A DNA stretch of 64,000 bases from an uncultured Candidatus Saccharibacteria bacterium (GTDB lineage Bacteria; Patescibacteriota; Minisyncoccia; Phycocordibacterales; CSBR16-119). Where the stretch lies: positions 7,914 to 71,913 of the forward strand of contig CAYHDV010000003.1 in NCBI GenBank assembly GCA_964355515.1. The letters are read 5' to 3'. The notes under the pieces are model-generated. The model searched no databases, was not told where the DNA came from, and was given only the letters and a program-made list of their open reading frames with translations. The first letter of the stretch is position 1; each line of letters starts with the position of its first letter. Positions 1 to 23,753 of the stretch are shown here, in pieces. The position numbers were made by a program, and so were the translations under genes.

Positions 1-88
1 TTATTTTATTCTATTATAGCACAATCAGTATGAGTTTGTCAAGCACCTTTGGATGATCCCCAAAGAATCCTCGAAACCTCGCTTTTTC

Positions 89-105
89 AGAGGTTCAACC
101 TCTGA
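89..105. repeat. REP-like palindrome agaggttcaacctct, embedded in a longer 19-bp-arm hairpin at 79-117
   Basis: Same core palindrome as four copies around the RAYT gene at 10.9-11.8 kb. Confidence 0.6.
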
Positions 106-190
106 AAAAGTGAGGTTACCTATCCCCTAGCATTTTCAAGGTTTTTTGTTATATTAGAAATACTTTTATCTAATTAATCCAACAAAAACA

Positions 191-4337: not shown

Positions 4338-5979
4338 AAGCGAAGGTTTCTTCTTCTCCGAACTCAGGAGAAAATGTTTCTGTCGTGTGGTGTGAGTCCA
4401 CGGCTTCTTCAAAAAAATTACCCAAGACATCACCTGTTCGAGATAATTCATCATCTTCGCGGTAAGCCCTCCCCATATCAAGAGATACATGAGCCCGGCC
4501 GGCTTCTTCATGATCCTCTCTATCAATCCCTATTCTTAAATTTGAACCCTCCATTAGATTGTTTTGCTTATGAGATTTTGTTGAATTGAAAAATGCTTTT
4601 TTAAGATTTTCATTTGGTACAACCGTATCAAAATTCAACTCAAAATTTATACGAGCCTGGGCATTTCTTTCTTTTCTTGGACGAACAAATGTCTTGAGCT
4701 CATATTCATAACCCTTTGTCTTGTCATCAACCCTCAACTTAAGACCATTTGCTGTTTTGTTTATAAGAGTAAAATCATAATTTTTTTGTTCTGGCATATC
4801 CGCTAAAATATCCAGCATTGTTGTCACACCCTCAATAGCATTCAAAACATCTTCTATATTTAATTTCGTTATATCTTCCATGGCAATACTGTTTGCCCCC
4901 ACCAAAATATCCTTGGCGCGAATCATTAGAGCTTCATAGAGTTCGTAGGGAAGCTTTTCTTTGGAGGGAATATCCAGGTCTGACCCCTCTATTGATTTTG
5001 AAAGTAATTCTTTAATTTTTTCTGCCGTATCAATAAGTTTTGAATATCCTTCAAATATTTTCTCTGACTCTTCCTGACGAAGCTTCGCACCAAGATCTAG
5101 GATTTTGCCCCCCATTTCTTGCCCACCTTGCTCCATAGACAAAAAGGTTCGAAGACCACTTCCGCCATACTTGTTTAAAAAAGATCTTAATTGACCCGCT
5201 TCTTCATTTGTTTTGTTCTTTATATAAGAAAAAAAGTTAAACAATTCAATTAAATTTGTCTGAGAAAAAGAAATCCCTAGATCTTTTTCTATTGGCGCCC
5301 TTAGGGCTTTGTTAGAAAAAAGTTTCTCAAACAAATCTATTTCTTTCTTATTAGCAGGATTCAAAACACCACTCATACTTAATTCATTATCAATTTCTTT
5401 AGAATTTTTAGAAAAAAAGAGTGTTTCATTAATATTTTTTATGTCACGCTTTGGTACACCAAGCCTTTTCATTCTATCTTTATATTCATTAAATTTATTT
5501 TTTTCTATCAACTTCAAGGAATCATCCAAAACAAGCGCAAAATGATTTTTATCAAAATCAATCTTTCTGACACTATTACCAAAGTTTTCCAAAAACAGCC
5601 CATTGTCTACGGTTGTTAGGTACTGAGAGAGGATATAGTTTGAGCCTTCATCTCCCCCCTGAGTATTGTTCAAATTCTCTATATATTGGCTATAAAAAGT
5701 TTTACTAGTGAGGTCACGGCCAATCATTTGGTCTCTATTTTCGCCAGAGCACGCACCTAGAGATGTGATATTTAGATAACTCTCTTCAAATTTATCAGGG
5801 TCTTTAAGGTCAATCTTAGGTAAAACTACATTCTCAATTCGCTTAGCCTCTCCTTCACCATAACCCCATGCGTACTGCTCACCATCACCCATCGATGGGT
5901 TTTTCCAAATTTCTATTCCCTCAATAACAACAGGACTTTCTTCTTGAGTATGATTGTAATTATTTGACCCTTCTTTCAT
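4285..5979 (-). CDS. Large hypothetical protein (564 aa), no recognised domains
   Basis: Uninterrupted ORF, convergent with the regulator and overlapping it by about 50 bp at the 3' ends. Confidence 0.6.
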   Translation of the reverse strand: MKEGSNNYNHTQEESPVVIEGIEIWKNPSMGDGEQYAWGYGEGEAKRIENVVLPKIDLKDPDKFEESYLNITSLGACSGENRDQMIGRDLTSKTFYSQYIENLNNTQGGDEGSNYILSQYLTTVDNGLFLENFGNSVRKIDFDKNHFALVLDDSLKLIEKNKFNEYKDRMKRLGVPKRDIKNINETLFFSKNSKEIDNELSMSGVLNPANKKEIDLFEKLFSNKALRAPIEKDLGISFSQTNLIELFNFFSYIKNKTNEEAGQLRSFLNKYGGSGLRTFLSMEQGGQEMGGKILDLGAKLRQEESEKIFEGYSKLIDTAEKIKELLSKSIEGSDLDIPSKEKLPYELYEALMIRAKDILVGANSIAMEDITKLNIEDVLNAIEGVTTMLDILADMPEQKNYDFTLINKTANGLKLRVDDKTKGYEYELKTFVRPRKERNAQARINFELNFDTVVPNENLKKAFFNSTKSHKQNNLMEGSNLRIGIDREDHEEAGRAHVSLDMGRAYREDDELSRTGDVLGNFFEEAVDSHHTTETFSPEFGEEETFASIAEMFRLYLNELQEKQ

Positions 5980-6178
5980 ACCCCAAATTATACACCACTA
6001 GCTCAAAATACAACCCTCTGTTATACTTGGCTTGTTATTAGATTAAATATACAGACCTGACCGTAGATACCGACATGACCCGTACCGACAATGAAAACTC
6101 TTTCTTCTTGAATTTTTTCACGACATACCTAAACCGACATAAATAAAACGTATCTAACCGAAGGGTCTTTGACCACAT

Positions 6179-7705
6179 ATGAATATAAAAATAATTATCT
6201 TTTTTGCTCTTACACTTTGTGTGGGAGGAGCTTTGGGATATGCACTACGATATCTCCTTGCAATAGGAAAGCGTGGCGGAGTGGAGCTAGAAATAAAGCA
6301 GATGATAGTAGATGCAAAAGAAGAGGCGTCTAGAATAACCGATGAATCAAAGAAAAAGGCAGAATTAAAAGAGCTAGAACTTAAAAAAGAAGAGAGAGAA
6401 CGAGAGTCAGAATTTAAAAAGACAGAAGACCGATTTATAAAAAAAGAAGAGCTTTTGGATGCAAGACAAGTAGAGCTAGACAAAGAATCAGAAGATATCA
6501 AAAGAAGACTAACAGACATAACAGAAAAACAAGAATTATTAGCTGATCTCGAAACAAAGAAACAAGATGAGCTTTCTAAGATTGCCCAAAAAACAAAGGA
6601 GGAGGCGCTCGAAGAAATATTTATTTCAATAGAAAGACAATACAGTGAAGACTTGCTTGCTCGAACTCAAAAGCTAGAACTTGCAAACAAAGAAAAACTC
6701 GACGCAAGAGCTCGTGATATTTTGACTATGTCTATTCAAAGAATGGCAAACGCCAATGTTTCAGACATCATGACAACAAACGTCACCCTATCTTCAGATG
6801 AAGAAAAAGGTAAGATTATCGGAAAAGAAGGTAGAAATATTCGTGCATTTGAAAGAGCTGCTGGAGTGGAGCTTATTGTAGACGACACGCCAGGGGTTGT
6901 GATTATTTCTGCGTTTGATCCTGTGCGACGACAAGTGGCACGTGTAGCACTTGAACACCTGATCGCCGATGGTAGAATCCAACCAGCAAAAATAGAAGAA
7001 GTGGTGAAAAAATCACAAGAAGAAGTAAACAACATAATCAAACAAAAAGGGGAAGAGGCTGTCTATGAACTTGGAATATATAACTTTGATCCACGAATTG
7101 TGGCTATTCTGGGGCGACTTTATTTCCGAACAAGCTACGGACAAAACGTCCTTCAGCACTCAGTAGAGATGGCACACATCGCAGCCATGATCGCAGAAGA
7201 GCTTGGGGCTGATGTAGCGGTAGCAAAGGCTGGAGCATTGGTGCATGACATAGGAAAGGCTCTTACACACGAAGTCCAGGGATCCCATGTTGATATTGGA
7301 ATAAGAATCCTTACAAAATTCGGAGCAGAAAAAGCAGTGATAGATGCAATGAAGAGTCATCATGATGAGTACCCATATGAAACCCTTGAAGCTCATATCG
7401 TCCAAACAGCAGATGCTATCTCAGGTGGAAGACCGGGGGCCAGACGTGATTCAGTAGAAAATTACTTGAAACGACTAGAGGAGCTAGAAAAAATAGCAAC
7501 AAGCCAAAAAGGTGTTGAGAAGGCTTATGCCCTATCAGCCGGGAGAGAAATCCGAGTGTTTGTAACACCAGAAAATATTTCTGATATTGAAGCCAAAGAA
7601 ACAGCAAGAGAAATTGCAAAAAACATTGAAGCAAATCTCAAATACCCAGGTGAAATACGAGTTGTGGTTATTCGAGAAAATAGAGTGATTGAGTTTGCAA
7701 GGTAG
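6179..7705 (+). CDS. rny: Ribonuclease Y
   Basis: N-terminal TM helix, coiled-coil, KH domain (KGKIIGKEGRNIRAFE) and HD domain (HSVEMAHIAAMIAEELG...HDIGKA). Confidence 0.9.
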   Translation: MNIKIIIFFALTLCVGGALGYALRYLLAIGKRGGVELEIKQMIVDAKEEASRITDESKKKAELKELELKKEERERESEFKKTEDRFIKKEELLDARQVELDKESEDIKRRLTDITEKQELLADLETKKQDELSKIAQKTKEEALEEIFISIERQYSEDLLARTQKLELANKEKLDARARDILTMSIQRMANANVSDIMTTNVTLSSDEEKGKIIGKEGRNIRAFERAAGVELIVDDTPGVVIISAFDPVRRQVARVALEHLIADGRIQPAKIEEVVKKSQEEVNNIIKQKGEEAVYELGIYNFDPRIVAILGRLYFRTSYGQNVLQHSVEMAHIAAMIAEELGADVAVAKAGALVHDIGKALTHEVQGSHVDIGIRILTKFGAEKAVIDAMKSHHDEYPYETLEAHIVQTADAISGGRPGARRDSVENYLKRLEELEKIATSQKGVEKAYALSAGREIRVFVTPENISDIEAKETAREIAKNIEANLKYPGEIRVVVIRENRVIEFAR

Positions 7706-7725
7706 TAGACTCAACATTTGGAAAA

Positions 7726-7754
7726 GACCCGCCCCCTAGGGGGCGGGTCTTTTC
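7726..7754 (+). terminator. Terminator after rny
   Basis: gacccgcccccta/gggggcgggtc hairpin plus T-tract. A second hairpin at 7772-7798 serves the minus-strand gene. Confidence 0.7.
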
Positions 7755-7808
7755 TCTTACCCAACCAAAACAAAAAGGACCACACACGGTGGTCCTTTCA
7801 TGCTTTCC

Positions 7809-8048
7809 TCATGGCTTCTTTTTTCCAAATGTCTTGTTCCAAATGAGGGATAACCCCAAAAGCATCAAAATCAAAGGAATGAGAGCATTCATTACAAGTG
7901 AGTAAATCGCAGTTATGATTGTCTGTTGTAGTTCTGGGCTGAACATGACAATCAAGGTGAGTATGCTCAATATGATAATCACAGTTCTCTTTGGTTCCCC
8001 AAAAAAGAAATCCATCCATTTTTCTCCAGTATTTTTTTCGTCAGCCAT
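7809..8048 (-). CDS. Small hypothetical membrane protein (79 aa)
   Basis: Two hydrophobic helices. Bracketed by terminator hairpins. Confidence 0.4.
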   Translation of the reverse strand: MADEKNTGEKWMDFFFGEPKRTVIIILSILTLIVMFSPELQQTIITAIYSLVMNALIPLILMLLGLSLIWNKTFGKKKP

Positions 8049-8697: not shown

Positions 8698-8770
8698 GGG
8701 GGTGTAGTATAACGGCTCATTATGCCTGCCTTCCAAGCAGGAGATCGGGGTTCGATTCCCCGCACCCTCA
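8698..8770 (+). tRNA. tRNA-Gly (anticodon UCC)
   Basis: Acceptor gggggtg/caccctc. Anticodon arm cctgc-cttccaa-gcagg. T-arm cgggg-ttcgatt-ccccg. The D-arm is atypical (3-bp stem). Followed by a terminator hairpin. Confidence 0.75.
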
Positions 8771-8774
8771 CAAA

Positions 8775-9215
8775 ACACTAGAGTCACCATGCAACGCATG
8801 GTGGCTTTTGTGTTTTACAGGTAGTAAGGGGAATCGAACCGAGCCCCGACGAAGTCTTTCGAGTATAACGAGAAAGCCGGGGCGAGTGGCGGCTGATGGA
8901 ACGAGATTTTTTGTGAGTGAAACGAAGCAAAAAATCCGTGAGAGGAGCCTATTCCCCGCACCCTCACAAATCTAAAAAGTCATGAATTACTCCATGGCTT
9001 TTTAGATTCTCGAGACGGGGGCGAGAAAGCAAATTTCTTTGCTTTCGTGGGAATCGAACCAGCGGAGCCATATTTCGAACAAAGTGAGAAAAAGCGAGAT
9101 GCGTCCAGCAGTACTTACTTCGCAGAAAATCTTTGATTTTTGAGAAAGTTAGTAACTGCGGGATCATTCCCCGCACCCTCACAAAGAAACAAAGACGCCA
9201 ACCTGGCGTCTTTGT
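8775..9215 (+). repeat. Two decayed tandem copies of tRNA-Gly (pseudo-tRNAs). The 20-nt tRNA 3' end attccccgcaccctcacaaa is directly repeated at 8951-8970 and 9166-9185, each copy followed by its own terminator hairpin
   Basis: Repeats fall at 196 and 215 bp spacing. The units retain D-arm-like (gtgagtgaaacg, gttagtaactgcgg) and acceptor/T-arm fragments. Inverted T-arm-like gggaatcgaacc is present in both units. Confidence 0.6.
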
Positions 9216-9885: not shown

Positions 9886-10099
9886 GTGGTAAGTATAACA
9901 AAAAACCTCTTCCCGAGGTTTTTTGTTATAGCCTTAATGGTCTTTCTATTTGTCCGTTACTTAGTCGGGGCTCGGATTATTTTTCTGCGGAATATTTCAT
10001 ATTCCGCTTTATTAAAAAAATAATCCCAGAGTCACTCCGCTACGCGCCACGGAGCAGGAGTATTTGCTCCGGCTTGATTCCTCTAAATTAGTCACTAGG

Positions 10100-10172
10100 T
10101 CGGAGTGCCGGGATTCGAACCCGGAGTCACTCGTACCCAAAACGAGCATGTTAGCCGTTACACCACACTCCG
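10100..10172 (-). tRNA. tRNA-Pro (anticodon UGG)
   Basis: Minus-strand cloverleaf. Acceptor cggagtg/cactccg, D gtgt/acat, anticodon arm ctcgt-tttgggt-acgag, T-arm ccggg-ttcgaat-cccgg. Confidence 0.8.
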
Positions 10173-10202
10173 ACCTAAGGACCAATTTAATTTAGAGAGA
10201 AC

Positions 10203-10240
10203 CTTCGCCCCAAAACAAGCATGCCAGCTGTTACACAATG
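10203..10240 (-). pseudogene. Partial degenerate duplicate of the tRNA-Pro 5' half
   Basis: cgccccaaaacaagcatgccagctgttacacaa versus cgtacccaaaacgagcatgttagccgttacacca, about 80% identical. Confidence 0.4.
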
Positions 10241-10296
10241 CTTTATCGCATATGAAACCCCATTATCTTATCATAATCTATAAGAAATACAATTGA

Positions 10297-10320
10297 AAAG
10301 GGGCTGAACGCCCCTTTTTT
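10297..10320. terminator. Bidirectional terminator hairpin
   Basis: aaaaggggc-tgaac-gcccctttttt. Confidence 0.7.
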
Positions 10321-10516
10321 AAAACTGGATATCCGTGTCATCATGTGGCTCAGGGTCACCTGAAGTAGTATCAAACGAATCCCCATCATCTACATCGAGG
10401 TAGTTTTCTCTTTGGCCATCCTGATTGTGCGAAGATCTATCGATTTTCCCTTGATCATGTTCTCCGTTGGTTTGGAAAATTGAAAATCCTCTTTTCTCTT
10501 TTGGATCTAAACTCAT
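10319..10516 (-). CDS. Small acidic hypothetical protein (65 aa)
   Basis: ORF only. D/E-rich. No homology recognised. Confidence 0.3.
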   Translation of the reverse strand: MSLDPKEKRGFSIFQTNGEHDQGKIDRSSHNQDGQRENYLDVDDGDSFDTTSGDPEPHDDTDIQF

Positions 10517-10546
10517 TTTTTTGAACTATTTTACATTTAGTATATC

Positions 10547-10927
10547 CTAAATACTCAATATTTCAACTTTTGCAGTTTTTTCTTCTTGATTTATTAGGAC
10601 GGATAACAATTTTATCTCTGTTTCACATGAAACATCATTATTCATAATATACATCTCAACAGCCTTCAAAAATCTTTCAATTTTCTTTGGGTGCATGTTT
10701 TCCGCAGGATTATATGTTTCATGTGAAACATCAAGCTTTTTTATACTACTTTTTACTTCAAAAAAATAAATAATTTTAGATTTTTTGGCAATTATGTCTA
10801 TTTCTCCTTGTTTTAAGGTAAAATTTCTCTCAATAATAGAAAAACCTTTACTTTTTAAATACCTAACAGCCAAATTTTCGCCCAATTCCCCTATTTGTTG
10901 AGTTTTTGATGTAAATACTCTAATCAT
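10547..10927 (-). CDS. yraN: YraN/UPF0102-family endonuclease
   Basis: GELGENLAVRYLKSKGFSIIERNF...GEIDIIAKK...FFEVK, the classic YraN N-terminal and PD-(D/E)xK-like pattern. Confidence 0.8.
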   Translation of the reverse strand: MIRVFTSKTQQIGELGENLAVRYLKSKGFSIIERNFTLKQGEIDIIAKKSKIIYFFEVKSSIKKLDVSHETYNPAENMHPKKIERFLKAVEMYIMNNDVSCETEIKLLSVLINQEEKTAKVEILSI

Positions 10928-10933
10928 ACAAAT

Positions 10934-10957
10934 TACTTAGAGGTTCAACCTCTAAGT
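10934..10957. repeat. REP-like palindrome cttagaggttCaacctctaag, abutting the RAYT stop codon
   Basis: 8-bp stem cttagagg/cctctaag with a 5-nt loop. The same element sits at 11406, 11615 and 11751. Confidence 0.7.
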
Positions 10958-10958
10958 C

Positions 10959-11597
10959 TTAGTCCAGCAAAAGATTGTCTAGTTTTTTGTCTTCCTGTCG
11001 CCTTTCTGCAATGGCATGCACAAGACCAAGGCTATTTTCTCGATAGTCTTCACTATTTTGGTATTGTCCTAGAATAATATCTGGATGTACGAGCTTTTTA
11101 GATGTTTCATGTGAAACATATTCAGGCCAACTGGATACATATAAATCCCCTTCTCCAAGGCCATGAACCATATAATTCAGGTTTACATATGCTCCAAGGT
11201 AAAGTAAATATTCGTTTGTGGCAATATGTTTCACTTTATATCGTCCCTGAAAAAGTGACCCCGATCGTTCATATTTATCGTTAAAGTACATAGTATATCC
11301 TGTGCCAACCTTCTGCATAAACTTTTCGATACCACCTTCAACAAGTGGTGTTAAAATCATATGAAAATGGTTTGGGTTTAAACAAAAGGCTACAATCTCA
11401 ACCAACTTAGAGGTTGAACCTCTAAGTTTTCCATACTTCATCACATGCAATCCACCAAATGAGTCAATTGTATTTAATTTGTTTAAATGCCGAAGAAAAA
11501 CCTTCAAATCTTCTTTGTCTTGGAATACCGTTCGTTTATCTACACCGCGATTGTATACATGGTAGTATTCTCCAGGCATAAGTGATATACGTTTCAT
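10959..11597 (-). CDS. IS200-like Y1 (HUH) transposase / REP-associated tyrosine transposase (RAYT)
   Basis: YHVYNRG N-terminal block, HuH motif (NPNHFHMIL) and catalytic Tyr context (QGRYKVKHI). Flanked by REP-like palindromes. Confidence 0.8.
   Translation of the reverse strand: MKRISLMPGEYYHVYNRGVDKRTVFQDKEDLKVFLRHLNKLNTIDSFGGLHVMKYGKLRGSTSKLVEIVAFCLNPNHFHMILTPLVEGGIEKFMQKVGTGYTMYFNDKYERSGSLFQGRYKVKHIATNEYLLYLGAYVNLNYMVHGLGEGDLYVSSWPEYVSHETSKKLVHPDIILGQYQNSEDYRENSLGLVHAIAERRQEDKKLDNLLLD
11406..11426. repeat. REP-like palindrome inside the RAYT ORF (in-frame, encodes KLRGSTSKL)
   Basis: Exact copy cttagaggttgaacctctaag within the coding sequence, between the N-terminal block and the HuH motif. 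Confidence 0.7.
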
Positions 11598-11614
11598 ATG
11601 AAACAGTGTAGCAC

Positions 11615-11635
11615 TTAGAGGTTGAACCTCTAAGT
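11615..11635. repeat. REP-like palindrome 18 bp upstream of the RAYT start
   Basis: Exact copy. Confidence 0.7.
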
Positions 11636-11750
11636 AAAGTCTCTTAAACTTGTTAATAACTAAGGTTTTTATTTTATAAAAGACTTTCTCTAATTATAAA
11701 AGACTGTCCTTTATCCACGTTACACCCAAGCTTTTCCACAGAATAAAGGA

Positions 11751-11771
11751 CTTAGAGGTTGAACCTCTAAG
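11751..11771. repeat. REP-like palindrome
   Basis: Exact copy between the RAYT and tRNA-Arg. Confidence 0.7.
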
Positions 11772-11898
11772 TCATCACCGGGCTGATTGAGGCTCTACTT
11801 ACGCCATTCTTCTGGCAGTTCATCCTTATAGTATCCCTTGATACCAGTAAAAAACAAAGAAAACCCACTGCTTTTGCAGTAGGTTTTCTTTGTTTTTG

Positions 11899-11970
11899 TG
11901 CACCCGGAGGGATTCGAACCCCCAACGACGGTTCCGAAGACCGGTATGATATCCATTTCACTACGAGTGC
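11899..11970 (-). tRNA. tRNA-Arg (anticodon UCG)
   Basis: Minus-strand cloverleaf. Acceptor gcactcg/cgggtgc (one G-U), D gtga/tcat, anticodon loop cttcgga, T-arm ggggg-ttcgaat-ccctc. Terminator hairpin downstream. Confidence 0.7.
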
Positions 11971-12141
11971 ATTTTCTTTTTGATTTGCTTGATATCTCAA
12001 GAATAATCCTTATTCTTACATAGTTTCACATGAAACAGTTATGTACCAACAAAACAATACGAGAATTGTACGATATATCCCCAAATAAAGCAATATTTTT
12101 CTATAAAAGCTGATATAATAAAAGAGTTAATAATTAAATAT

Positions 12142-13716
12142 GTGAATATGTACCAAAGGGGCACTATCAAAGAGTTCGAATCTCTATATCCACACAATAA
12201 ATCAATGCAAACAATGCATTTCCATATACCAGAAGAAGTGATAAAGGCTACAAAAACCCTAAAAGATAGGGGCTTTGAGGCATATCTTGTGGGTGGCTGT
12301 GTGAGAGATCTATTAACAGAGAAAAAACCAAAGGACTGGGATATTGCAACCAATGCAAAACCCGAGGAAATACAAGCTTTGTTCGTAAAAACAGTCTATG
12401 AAAATAACTTCGGGACAGTGGCTGTTGTAAATGAAGAGCTGGGGCTGGATGATCCACTGCGGGTTATAGAGATAACCCCATATAGAACAGAGAGCAACTA
12501 CAGCAACAACCGCCATCCAGACTCGGTGTCTTTTAGTGAAAATCTAGAAGAGGATCTAAAGAGACGAGACTTCACCATGAACGCAATAGCCGTTGAAATT
12601 AAAGGGTTTATAAAAGACATTGATAAAGGACATGAGGTGATTATAAACGACATGTATGGTGGTATAAAGGACATTCAGAGACAAGTCATAAAAGCGGTAG
12701 GGAATGCGGATGAAAGATTCAAGGAAGATGCACTCCGAATTATGCGGGCTATCCGGTTTTCTTCACAGCTTGGTTTCATGGCAGATTCAGAAGTTATGGA
12801 AGCTATGGGGAAAAACAAAGAACTCCTAGCCAATATCTCCCACGAAAGAATCCGGGATGAGCTAATCAAAATAATAAATTCAGATGACCCAATGATAGCG
12901 TTCGTCACTATGCAAAAACTAGGAATCCTACCCTATGTCATACCTGAACTTGAAGAAACAATAAAAATAGAGCAAGGAGGCGAACATATCTATGATGTGT
13001 GGGAACACTCACTTCGAGCTCTCCAAAATGGGGCAGACAAGAAATATGCGTTTCATGTGAGACTCGCGTCGCTCCTTCACGATATAGGGAAGCCAAGGAC
13101 AAGAAGGCCAGATCCACAGGGAAAAGGTTGGACTTTCTACAACCATGAAGTGGTGGGGGCAAAAATGGCAAAAAAGATACTTGAGAGGCTCAACTTTTCA
13201 CGTGAAACAATAAGCACTATTGTTTCACTCGTACGGTGGCACATGTTTTTCTCTGATCCTGATCAAATCACCCTCTCTGCTGTAAGACGACTTATCCGAA
13301 ATGTGGGACCTGAGCTGGTATGGGACTTGATGGATGTCCGGCGTTGTGACCGAATAGGTATGGGACGACCAAAAGAATCTCCATACAGACTAAGGAAATT
13401 TGAATCAATGATAGAAGAAGTAAGTCGAGACCCCGTGTCTGTAAAGCAACTTAAACTCAATGGAGATATCATGATTGCAGAGCTTGGTATGAAACCCGGA
13501 AGGGAAATCGGCTGGATACTGCATGCGCTGCTAGAAGAGGTCCTGGATGACCCAAACAAAAACGAGCTTGAATATCAAAAAGAGCGAGCACTCGAGCTCT
13601 CCAAACTACCGCAAGATGCACTAAGAGAACTAGGCGAAGCAGGGAAGGAAGCCACAGAAGAAGCCGAAGAAGCCGAGCTGAAAGAAATTCGTAAGAAGCA
13701 TAAGGTGGGGAAATAG
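12142..13716 (+). CDS. cca: CCA-adding tRNA nucleotidyltransferase with HD domain and E/K-rich C-terminal tail
   Basis: GGCVRDLLTEKKPKDWDIATNAKPEE head domain. HD motif LLHDIGK. 524 aa. Confidence 0.85.
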   Translation: MNMYQRGTIKEFESLYPHNKSMQTMHFHIPEEVIKATKTLKDRGFEAYLVGGCVRDLLTEKKPKDWDIATNAKPEEIQALFVKTVYENNFGTVAVVNEELGLDDPLRVIEITPYRTESNYSNNRHPDSVSFSENLEEDLKRRDFTMNAIAVEIKGFIKDIDKGHEVIINDMYGGIKDIQRQVIKAVGNADERFKEDALRIMRAIRFSSQLGFMADSEVMEAMGKNKELLANISHERIRDELIKIINSDDPMIAFVTMQKLGILPYVIPELEETIKIEQGGEHIYDVWEHSLRALQNGADKKYAFHVRLASLLHDIGKPRTRRPDPQGKGWTFYNHEVVGAKMAKKILERLNFSRETISTIVSLVRWHMFFSDPDQITLSAVRRLIRNVGPELVWDLMDVRRCDRIGMGRPKESPYRLRKFESMIEEVSRDPVSVKQLKLNGDIMIAELGMKPGREIGWILHALLEEVLDDPNKNELEYQKERALELSKLPQDALRELGEAGKEATEEAEEAELKEIRKKHKVGK

Positions 13717-21180: not shown

Positions 21181-21608
21181 TTCTTGGTAAAATACCCATT
21201 ACTTTTTTATGAGAAAAAAGTAATCAAAAACTCAGACCTGATTCAAAAAGCCTAAAAAATACTCTTTCTCCCTACACTCAGCAGATCGCTGCGCTAATGC
21301 TTCGTGCTTAACGCTCGAAAGAATGTTTTTCTTAACGGCATTTTGAAAACGGTCGAAAGAGCCATTTAAAGAACATCTTCTCACTTTCCGACACTTGAGC
21401 TTTAACTTTAAAAATATTCACGGTTTTTTTGATTAGTGCGTAGCTTTAGCGATAGCGATCAGCGTAGCACCAAAAAAACCGTGAGTTATTTTTTAGGTAA
21501 AGTGAGGTGTCTAGATTTTTTGTTTCTTTTTTATCGATGAAAAAAGAAAGATAATCTTGTTGTGAAAAATGATGGATATTCTGGATCCCCGCCTGCGCGG
21601 GGAAGACA
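21181..21608. repeat. 428-bp direct repeat, copy A (upstream region of the Xer gene)
   Basis: More than 90% identical to 23326-23753. Contains the palindrome ttacttttttatgagaaaaaagtaa, a long hairpin cacggttttttt...aaaaaaaccgtg, and a terminal GC hairpin ggatccccgcctgcgcggggaagac. Confidence 0.85.
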
Positions 21609-23325: not shown

Positions 23326-23753
23326 TTCTTGGCAAAATACCCATTACTTTTTTATGAGAAAAAAGTAACCAAAAACTCAGACCTGATTCAAAAAGCCTAA
23401 AAAATAATCTTTCTCACTACACTCAGCAGATCGCTGCGCTAATGCTTCGTGCTTAACGCTCGAAAGAATACTTTTCTTAACGGCATTTTGAAAACGGTCG
23501 TACGAGCCACCCAATTAAGAATTGCAATACATCCCGACACTTGAGCTTTAACTTTAAAAATATTCACGGTTTTTTTGATTAGTGCGTAGCTTTAGCGGTA
23601 GCGATCAGCGTAGCACCAAAAAAACCGTGAGTTATTTTTTAGGTAAAGTGAGGTGTCTTGGCTTTTTGTTCCTTTTTTGCCAAGAAAAAAGGAAGGTATT
23701 CTTGTTACGAAAAAGTGATTGATATCCTGGATCCCCGCCTGCGCGGGGAAGAC
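23326..23753. repeat. 428-bp direct repeat, copy B (upstream region of the beta-propeller gene)
   Basis: See copy A. Confidence 0.85.

Follow-up and report, generated by a model that had tools for sequence, protein, structure and literature searches.

A RAYT-like Y1/HUH gene of Patescibacteria with in-frame palindromes in its own coding sequence

A domesticated-looking gene for a Y1/HUH enzyme, predicted to be closest in fold to the REP-associated tyrosine transposases (RAYTs; REP, repetitive extragenic palindrome), was accompanied by four short perfect palindromes in a 64-kb stretch of contig CAYHDV010000003.1 from an uncultured, ultra-small Candidatus Saccharibacteria bacterium (the whole of this stretch is termed the window). 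One of the palindromes lies in-frame within the coding sequence (CDS) of the gene itself. Among homologs, palindromes recur at the same sites around and within the gene, internal and flanking copies change sequence together, copies are concentrated at the gene, and in-frame copies occur in other genes of related genomes. With modest confidence, the locus is best read as a Patescibacterial (Parcubacteria-type) REPtron-like unit, comprising an intact Y1/HUH enzyme and a cognate hairpin, which acts mostly in cis and whose copies are homogenised.

The enzyme gene and its palindromes

The features of the locus, and the one related palindrome found at a distance from it, were as follows.

10959..11597, minus strand: Y1/HUH (RAYT-like) gene, an intact open reading frame (ORF) of 212 aa with a Pfam Y1_Tnp match
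11613..11635, no strand assigned: site U, a perfect palindrome of 23 bp, ACTTAGAGGTTGAACCTCTAAGT, situated in the leader with its end 15-16 nt upstream of the ATG
11404..11428, no strand assigned: site S1, a 25-bp perfect palindrome within the ORF, in-frame at K57-L65 (KLRGSTSKL)
10935..10957, no strand assigned: site D, a 23-bp perfect palindrome 1 nt past the stop codon, within the 31 nt that separate the Y1 and YraN genes
11749..11773, no strand assigned: site U2, an additional perfect palindrome (25 bp) in the interval from tRNA-Arg to the Y1 gene
11671..11700, minus strand: promoter-like -35/-10 pair between U2 and U, with 9/12 consensus matches only
78..114, no strand assigned: dispersed relative, with the 15-nt core AGAGGTTCAACCTCT (89-103) at the tip of an intergenic hairpin with a 17-bp stem, upstream of a ClpP-like ORF

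The sequence CTTAGAGGTTSAACCTCTAAG had four exact matches in the window (starts 10936, 11406, 11614 and 11751), all within 840 bp; dinucleotide-preserving shuffles produced 0.01 matches on average, and none of 100 shuffles reached four. With the core found again at 89-103, the four copies and one relative listed in a preliminary description of this DNA were recovered. No further palindrome of this type was found in the window. The complete perfect palindromes measure 23-25 bp, and when each was folded as single-stranded DNA the free energy was -8.5 to -10 kcal/mol (z-scores -5.4 to -6.2), compared with -15.5 kcal/mol for the hairpin at 78-114 (z = -7.7). The copy described as abutting the stop codon is indeed adjacent to it, but is separated from it by 1 nt, and its centre base is flipped with respect to U, U2 and S1, which corresponds to the reverse-complement orientation; placed at S1, the orientation seen at D would turn TCA into a TGA stop. 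The upstream distances had to be revised: U ends 16 nt, not 18 bp, before the ATG, and U2 starts 137 bp, not 150 bp, further upstream in the orientation of the gene. Second upstream copies were also present at four homolog loci (L011, L022, L026 and L070).

Use of the promoter-like pair would make U part of the 5' untranslated leader; sites of this kind were no more numerous around the locus than expected from shuffles. U2 and D were flagged as terminator-like on the minus strand, from consensus matches only. In a search of Rfam over positions 10000-12300 only two tRNAs passed, and the hairpins matched no known RNA family. Across five independent assemblies, the 1.9 kb surrounding the Y1 gene was 100% identical; an assembly artefact was therefore ruled out, and strain-level loop flips or palindrome gains, sought in the same five assemblies, were not found. 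An intron or intein at S1 was also ruled out: the segment spans 7-9 codons that are in-frame and translated.

The protein matched Pfam Y1_Tnp (PF01797) with 32.6 bits against a cut-off of 23 (1e-7). The match covered only residues 63-139, from which an N-terminal block is set apart by the loop that carries S1. In an alignment of 29 homologs the HuH motif (H77-F-H79) and Y137 were invariant, such that the catalytic residues appear intact. Y137 is the putative catalytic tyrosine, as it falls close to where the Pfam match ends, and sits in a helix (residues 128-139) of a confident AlphaFold (AF2) model (pLDDT 82.7). Among solved structures, the top Foldseek match of this model was 4er8_A (E = 1.3e-5, TM 0.64 on target), that is, the E. 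coli TnpA-REP, a REP-associated tyrosine transposase, with a bound REP hairpin; the matches that followed were 2a6m, 2vjv, 2xm3 and 2f4f, which are transposases of IS608, ISDra2 and IS200. The Pfam match, the invariant HuH and Tyr residues and the fold matches together point to a Y1/HUH enzyme of a divergent clade, with a predicted fold nearest to RAYTs, in agreement with the initial view of a RAYT/IS200-like Y1 transposase. Among 5.8 billion proteins searched, 2,309 homologs were identified, and those with names came from Patescibacteria/Parcubacteria-type bacteria.

In the AF2 model, the S1 residues (57-65) form a coil with the lowest internal pLDDT, immediately ahead of the strand running into the HuH motif. 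The KLRGSTSKL segment had been proposed to be either a tolerated loop insertion or a sign of recent inactivation, and the former fits its location in the model. The centre of S1 lies 16 residues ahead of the first HuH histidine.

Conservation and concerted change across homologs

Eighty homolog loci were fetched from metagenomes, using peptide patterns for retrieval that were independent of the palindrome. Palindromes were called as perfect stems of at least 9 bp, and the site occupancies that result are lower bounds. Many of the loci came from a few groundwater or sediment studies, and they are not phylogenetically independent.

Palindromes were found at U in 65 of 79 loci (median end 20 nt before the start codon) and at D in 52 of 79 (median start 4 nt after the stop codon). 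Two sites within the CDS were occupied: S1, in the loop before the HuH strand (45/81 loci), and S2, in a loop after the Tyr helix (38/81); both positions are coil in the model. By locus, in-frame palindromes were present at one or both loops in 60 of 80 homologs of 41-51% identity, with S1 alone in 23, S2 alone in 18, both in 19 and neither in 20; an imperfect copy of S1 was kept in 6 of the last 20. The same pattern was visible in protein alignments, where the peptide L-[RG]-G-x-x-S-K-L stood at the same alignment place in homologs of 45-50% identity, and a second peptide of the S1 type followed the Tyr helix in other homologs. Altogether, the 80 CDSs contained 86 perfect palindromes (stem at least 9 bp), compared with 2.35 in codon-shuffled versions, and 64 CDSs contained at least one. 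A single reading frame accounted for 79 of 83 internal copies, in which the centre base took codon position 2. S2 was placed exactly 13 residues past the Tyr motif in 29 of 37 cases, while the offset from S1 to the HuH motif varied between 15 and 31 residues (16 in 13 cases, which is the modal value and that of the window gene; 19-22 in 20 cases).

The outer stem, or foot, of the palindrome (ACTTRG/CYAAGT) was 79-97% conserved, in coding and non-coding copies alike, whereas the inner stem and loop differed by genome, producing 78 distinct 15-nt cores. Within a locus, the identity between internal and flanking cores was 94% (80% of 138 pairs were identical); between loci it was 54%, and 0.9% of pairs were identical. 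A perfect match between internal and flanking cores was seen in 54 of 61 loci. The encoded peptide varied with the core (LGGETSK, LGHSVSK, LGDRVSK, LRGSTSK and others), which indicates that the palindrome, and not the peptide, is the conserved item.

Comparison with two syntenic orthologs, L095 and L097, identified lineage-specific changes that were shared by U, S1 and D within each ortholog. At these three sites the window reads CTTAGAGG...CCTCTAAG; L095 has G(T/G)GAGAGG...CCTCTCAC at the same sites, and L097 has GTAAGAGGTTCGACCTCTTAC, with a new loop at all three. An orthologous copy of S1 was thereby present in relatives of 74% and 66% protein identity. Where a contig carried a second, divergent paralog, the latter was flanked by its own, different palindrome type. 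In the loci compared, the internal copy is a conserved trait of the family that evolves in concert with the flanking copies.

The orientation of the loop was approximately 50:50 (same or inverted) between any two sites of the homolog loci; for the flanks alone it was the same in 19 loci and inverted in 17. A fixed polarity of copies, as would characterize insertion sequence (IS) ends or REPIN doublets, was rejected on these grounds. Among imperfect copies, G-T mismatches numbered 16 and A-C mismatches 14; in this small sample there was no excess of the G-U-compatible mismatches on the sense strand that would reflect an RNA-level hairpin. The random orientation and the equal mismatch types fit copying at the level of DNA rather than a strand-specific RNA element.

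In many copies, including some in coding sequence, the shared core tipped a much longer perfect palindrome with site-specific outer arms. Such stems reached 23 bp at U and 20 bp at D in L032, 24 bp at D in L077, 19 bp at S1 in L061 and 17 bp at 78-114 in the window. These site-specific long arms suggest arm-to-arm templated correction or extension of stems.

Copies were strongly concentrated at the Y1 gene, at 28 per 10 kb compared with 0.22 copies of identical core per 10 kb over the other 625 kb of locus sequence; this represents an enrichment of about 127-fold (range 70- to 127-fold). A scan of species-representative genomes found the exact 23-mer of the window at scattered single sites in other Patescibacteria metagenome-assembled genomes, and no Y1 gene was found within the 5.4-8 kb fetched around each. 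Dispersed copies often tipped longer, site-specific perfect palindromes. Related genomes also contained in-frame copies within housekeeping genes: YchF (L032), DnaG (L048), Fmt (L077) and KsgA (L015) were confirmed by Pfam, and ApbE-like (L006), prepilin peptidase (L045) and PurB (L044) genes were recognised by sequence motifs only. These copies used all three reading frames (LGGxxSK, LAVKPPS and LETKFPS) and added roughly 7-9 residues, for example to the DnaG linker between zinc ribbon and catalytic core. Within the window, the Y1 gene alone had an in-frame copy. The in-frame copies inside housekeeping genes argue that the hairpin elements are mobile and tolerated in coding sequence, with the Y1 gene by far their main residence.

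Genomic setting and other repeats

On one side of the Y1 gene lie tRNA-Arg and the gene for the CCA-adding enzyme; its neighbours on the opposite side are a YraN-family gene and UDG. Gene order (CCA-adding enzyme, Y1 gene, YraN, UDG) was retained at 74% (L095) and 66% (P0004/L097) protein identity, and position and neighbours were unchanged across the five assemblies and these two diverged relatives. There was one copy of the gene in the 64 kb, and a few homolog contigs contained a second, divergent Y1 paralog. The shared gene order in relatives argues for a fixed gene, in all probability inherited vertically, and not a hopping insertion sequence.

Two strains with an identical Y1 locus, L001 and L002, differed in gene content 3-5 kb upstream (locus coordinates about 5300-7850), where one had radical-SAM-like and TrmB-family genes and the other had unrelated small ORFs. 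A XerC-type integrase gene was located about 4-5 kb further upstream in L001. The region upstream of the Y1 gene is thus a small variable stretch in an otherwise identical neighbourhood.

A second palindrome, TGTTTCAYRTGAAACA, was present around the Y1 gene at 10619-10634, 10715-10730, 11103-11118, 11590-11605 and 12022-12037, with a weaker instance at 13194-13209; the five copies occurred in 1.5 kb and none was found elsewhere in the 64 kb. It is in-frame twice in the YraN gene (VSHET and VSCET) and once in the Y1 gene (VSHET), another copy overlaps the Y1 start codon, and one lies in the spacer by tRNA-Arg. These sites were at orthologous positions in L095 and L097, with a central CA, TG or TA that varied. 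The parS centromere consensus, TGTTNCACGTGAAACA, is one base from TGTTTCAYRTGAAACA, and a dnaA gene lies about 40 kb from the cluster (near 50.8 kb). The repeats may form a parS cluster close to the origin; the window yielded no ParB motif.

Two further repeats were observed in the window. The last 20 nt of tRNA-Gly (8698-8771), ATTCCCCGCACCCTCACAAA, were repeated twice downstream with a spacing of approximately 200 bp (8755-8774, 8951-8970 and 9166-9185), and look like att-site remnants of successive integrations at tRNA-Gly. Matching palindromes and 14-mers were found 2.1 kb apart (21198-21224 with 23344-23368, and 21418-21484 with 23564-23630), suggesting that some 2 kb have been duplicated.

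Interpretation and relation to known systems

REPs are extragenic by name. In the favoured reading of a REPtron-like unit, the enzyme would bind the hairpin when it is extruded in single-stranded DNA, as the E. coli TnpA-REP does, and would recognise it by a conserved foot combined with a lineage-specific tip. Cutting and rejoining at the foot would allow hairpins to be copied or replaced. If the enzyme acted mainly in cis, hairpins would accumulate around and within its own gene; selection would eliminate the intragenic copies save those that are in-frame and in permissive loops. The flanks, and two loops of the protein that tolerate 7-9 extra residues, would become saturated in this way. Repeated re-copying, either mediated by the enzyme or through hairpin-templated strand switching, would keep coding and non-coding copies identical and would also flip the loops at random. 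The S1 copy of the window would then be an old, tolerated and continually refreshed loop element and not a mark of inactivation.

Several observations weigh against this interpretation. The link between enzyme and hairpin is an association. The enzyme scored 25.6 bits against the NCBI curated RAYT model NF047646, below its cut-off of 80, and a profile search of the PDB at E up to 10 returned no meaningful match at the level of sequence, the link to TnpA-REP coming solely from the fold comparison. A GTAG (or CGTC) tag was not found to accompany the palindromes: GTAG was nearby in only one of the four window copies, and positions outside the ACTTGG/CCAAGT foot were no more than about 50% conserved, except one just 3' of the foot (65%). 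The earlier designation as a RAYT/IS200-like Y1 transposase with REP-like hairpins on either side was borne out. Dispersal is not evident in this genome segment, the hairpin at 78-114 being the sole related copy away from the gene. The placement of S2 is more precise than a passive by-product needs to be, and points towards function. Lastly, in the 29-homolog alignment the loop was no shorter in homologs without the S1 palindrome. Equal loop length favours overwriting or decay in place over simple insertion, and the palindrome seems to overwrite, or to decay in, an existing loop rather than merely to lengthen it.

In the main rival, selection maintains the hairpins as cis-regulatory sites: the enzyme would bind its own leader, CDS and 3' end, as DNA or mRNA, and throttle its own expression, and the internal copies would be needed. 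Its appeal lies in the tight placement of U, D and S2 relative to the start codon, stop codon and Tyr motif, in the 70- to 127-fold enrichment at the gene, in the retention of cognate sequence at every site and in the promoter-like pair that would put U in the leader. Against it, S1 and S2 are patchily occupied and the S1 offset ranges over 15-31 residues; the loops are randomly oriented, the sense strand has no excess of G-U-compatible mismatches (16 vs 14), and the joint change of four sites and both arms is hard to achieve through selection alone. We regard this explanation as rather unlikely. An improbable alternative, and clearly a weaker one, dispenses with the enzyme: strand switching linked to replication, combined with short-tract gene conversion among nearby hairpins, would act independently of Y1, and the association with the gene would be historical. 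Perfect arms, stems that reach into site-specific flanks (23-24 bp in L032 and L077, 17 bp at 78-114), random loop flips and symmetric mismatch types are all as such a process would leave them. It accounts poorly for a four-site layout repeated around the Y1 family in most of 80 unrelated loci, for paralogs that each carry their own palindrome type, and for the fact that the closest solved relative of the enzyme binds exactly such hairpins; identical copies kilobases away and in other genes need transposition, not local conversion.

The remaining rivals concern the nature of the gene. Spanning about 720 bp from U to D, the unit has one small Y1 gene and a hairpin at either end, as IS200 does, and it could be an autonomous IS200-type insertion sequence in which the internal copy is incidental. 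This is very improbable: the unit occupies an unchanged chromosomal site among unchanged neighbours in three diverged genomes, exists as one copy in 64 kb, and ends in the same perfect palindrome at random relative orientation, with no distinct left and right ends on one strand, while its internal copies are conserved family-wide. Least credible is the second option of the preliminary description, a recently inactivated transposase, under which the gene would lately have been struck by a REP of its own and left inactive or in decay. A mobile palindrome within coding sequence would be expected under this explanation, which is already contradicted by the intact ORF, by catalytic residues that are invariant and a sequence that is identical in five assemblies, by orthologous S1 copies in syntenic relatives at 74% and 66% identity, by palindromes in 60 of 80 homolog loci, including S1 in distant homologs, and by the mapping of the S1 segment to coil.

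Classical REPtrons consist of a single-copy Y1 gene flanked by cognate REPs, which carry a GTAG tag, are dispersed in high copy number and are without exception extragenic (PMC8266576, PMC5581495, PMC3479197); in those studied, the tag guides cleavage (PMC8266576). The window family resembles REPtrons (TnpA-REP of E. coli, Stenotrophomonas, Marinomonas and Pseudomonas) in that a Y1/HUH gene, probably inherited vertically, has cognate flanking palindromes, in that the repeat is specific to each gene and lineage, and in a fold closest to 4ER8; its short perfect palindromes resemble group 3 REPs. It differs from them in holding cognate palindromes in-frame inside the CDS of the enzyme, in two loops, and in being far denser at the gene, with only tens of copies expected per genome. 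It also differs in the absence of a GTAG/CGTC tag, REP doublets and BIME-type arrays, in random orientation, in a protein far below the curated RAYT model and in its Patescibacterial host. In the IS200/IS605 family (IS200, IS608, ISDra2), too, TnpA has a Y1/HUH fold, a single Tyr and single-strand DNA chemistry, and its small gene has a hairpin close to either end. Those elements are mobile and multicopy, however, and end in two different, imperfect hairpins of one strand that come with guide tetranucleotides, whereas the window gene is fixed and syntenic, with one perfect palindrome repeated on both flanks. A further parallel is with the palindromic elements of Rickettsia (RPEs; PMC10969869), mobile palindromic repeats placed in-frame in unrelated housekeeping genes of a reduced genome, where they give surface regions an added peptide. 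RPEs measure about 150 bp, with a conserved peptide and no known cognate transposase (PMC10969869), while the elements of the window family are 21-31 bp long, their peptide follows the genome-specific core, and their main residence is the putative mobilising gene.

REPs within a RAYT gene are not mentioned in PMC5581495, PMC6006769 or PMC8266576, and no report of RAYT/REP systems in Patescibacteria, or the candidate phyla radiation (CPR), was found in the literature searched. Nor was a prior report found there of family-wide, in-frame cognate hairpins in a Y1 gene, and the system is best read as a variant of the known REPtron kind.

A stronger proposition can be advanced tentatively, although we think it unlikely: that the intragenic hairpins are an obligatory working part, serving as the master template of the hairpin population of the genome, as the operator of the gene, or as both. 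If so, the operator role would consist of feedback through self-binding or self-cleavage on single-stranded DNA or mRNA, and the specificity of the enzyme would be physically locked to its substrate, the two co-evolving as one unit. Such a self-referential REP-RAYT design would be undescribed for any transposase-derived system.

How RAYTs and REPs stay matched over the long term is an open question that the Y1 family addresses. With 78 hairpin cores paired with 78 enzyme variants, it forms a natural record of the co-evolution of enzyme and substrate, and the lock-step change of internal and flanking copies supports, indirectly but strongly, copying or conversion that acts in cis. Because its pairs of hairpin and enzyme are many and defined, the family may serve to probe the specificity of HUH enzymes, and its elements are a source of loop insertions of 7-9 residues in essential proteins of streamlined genomes.

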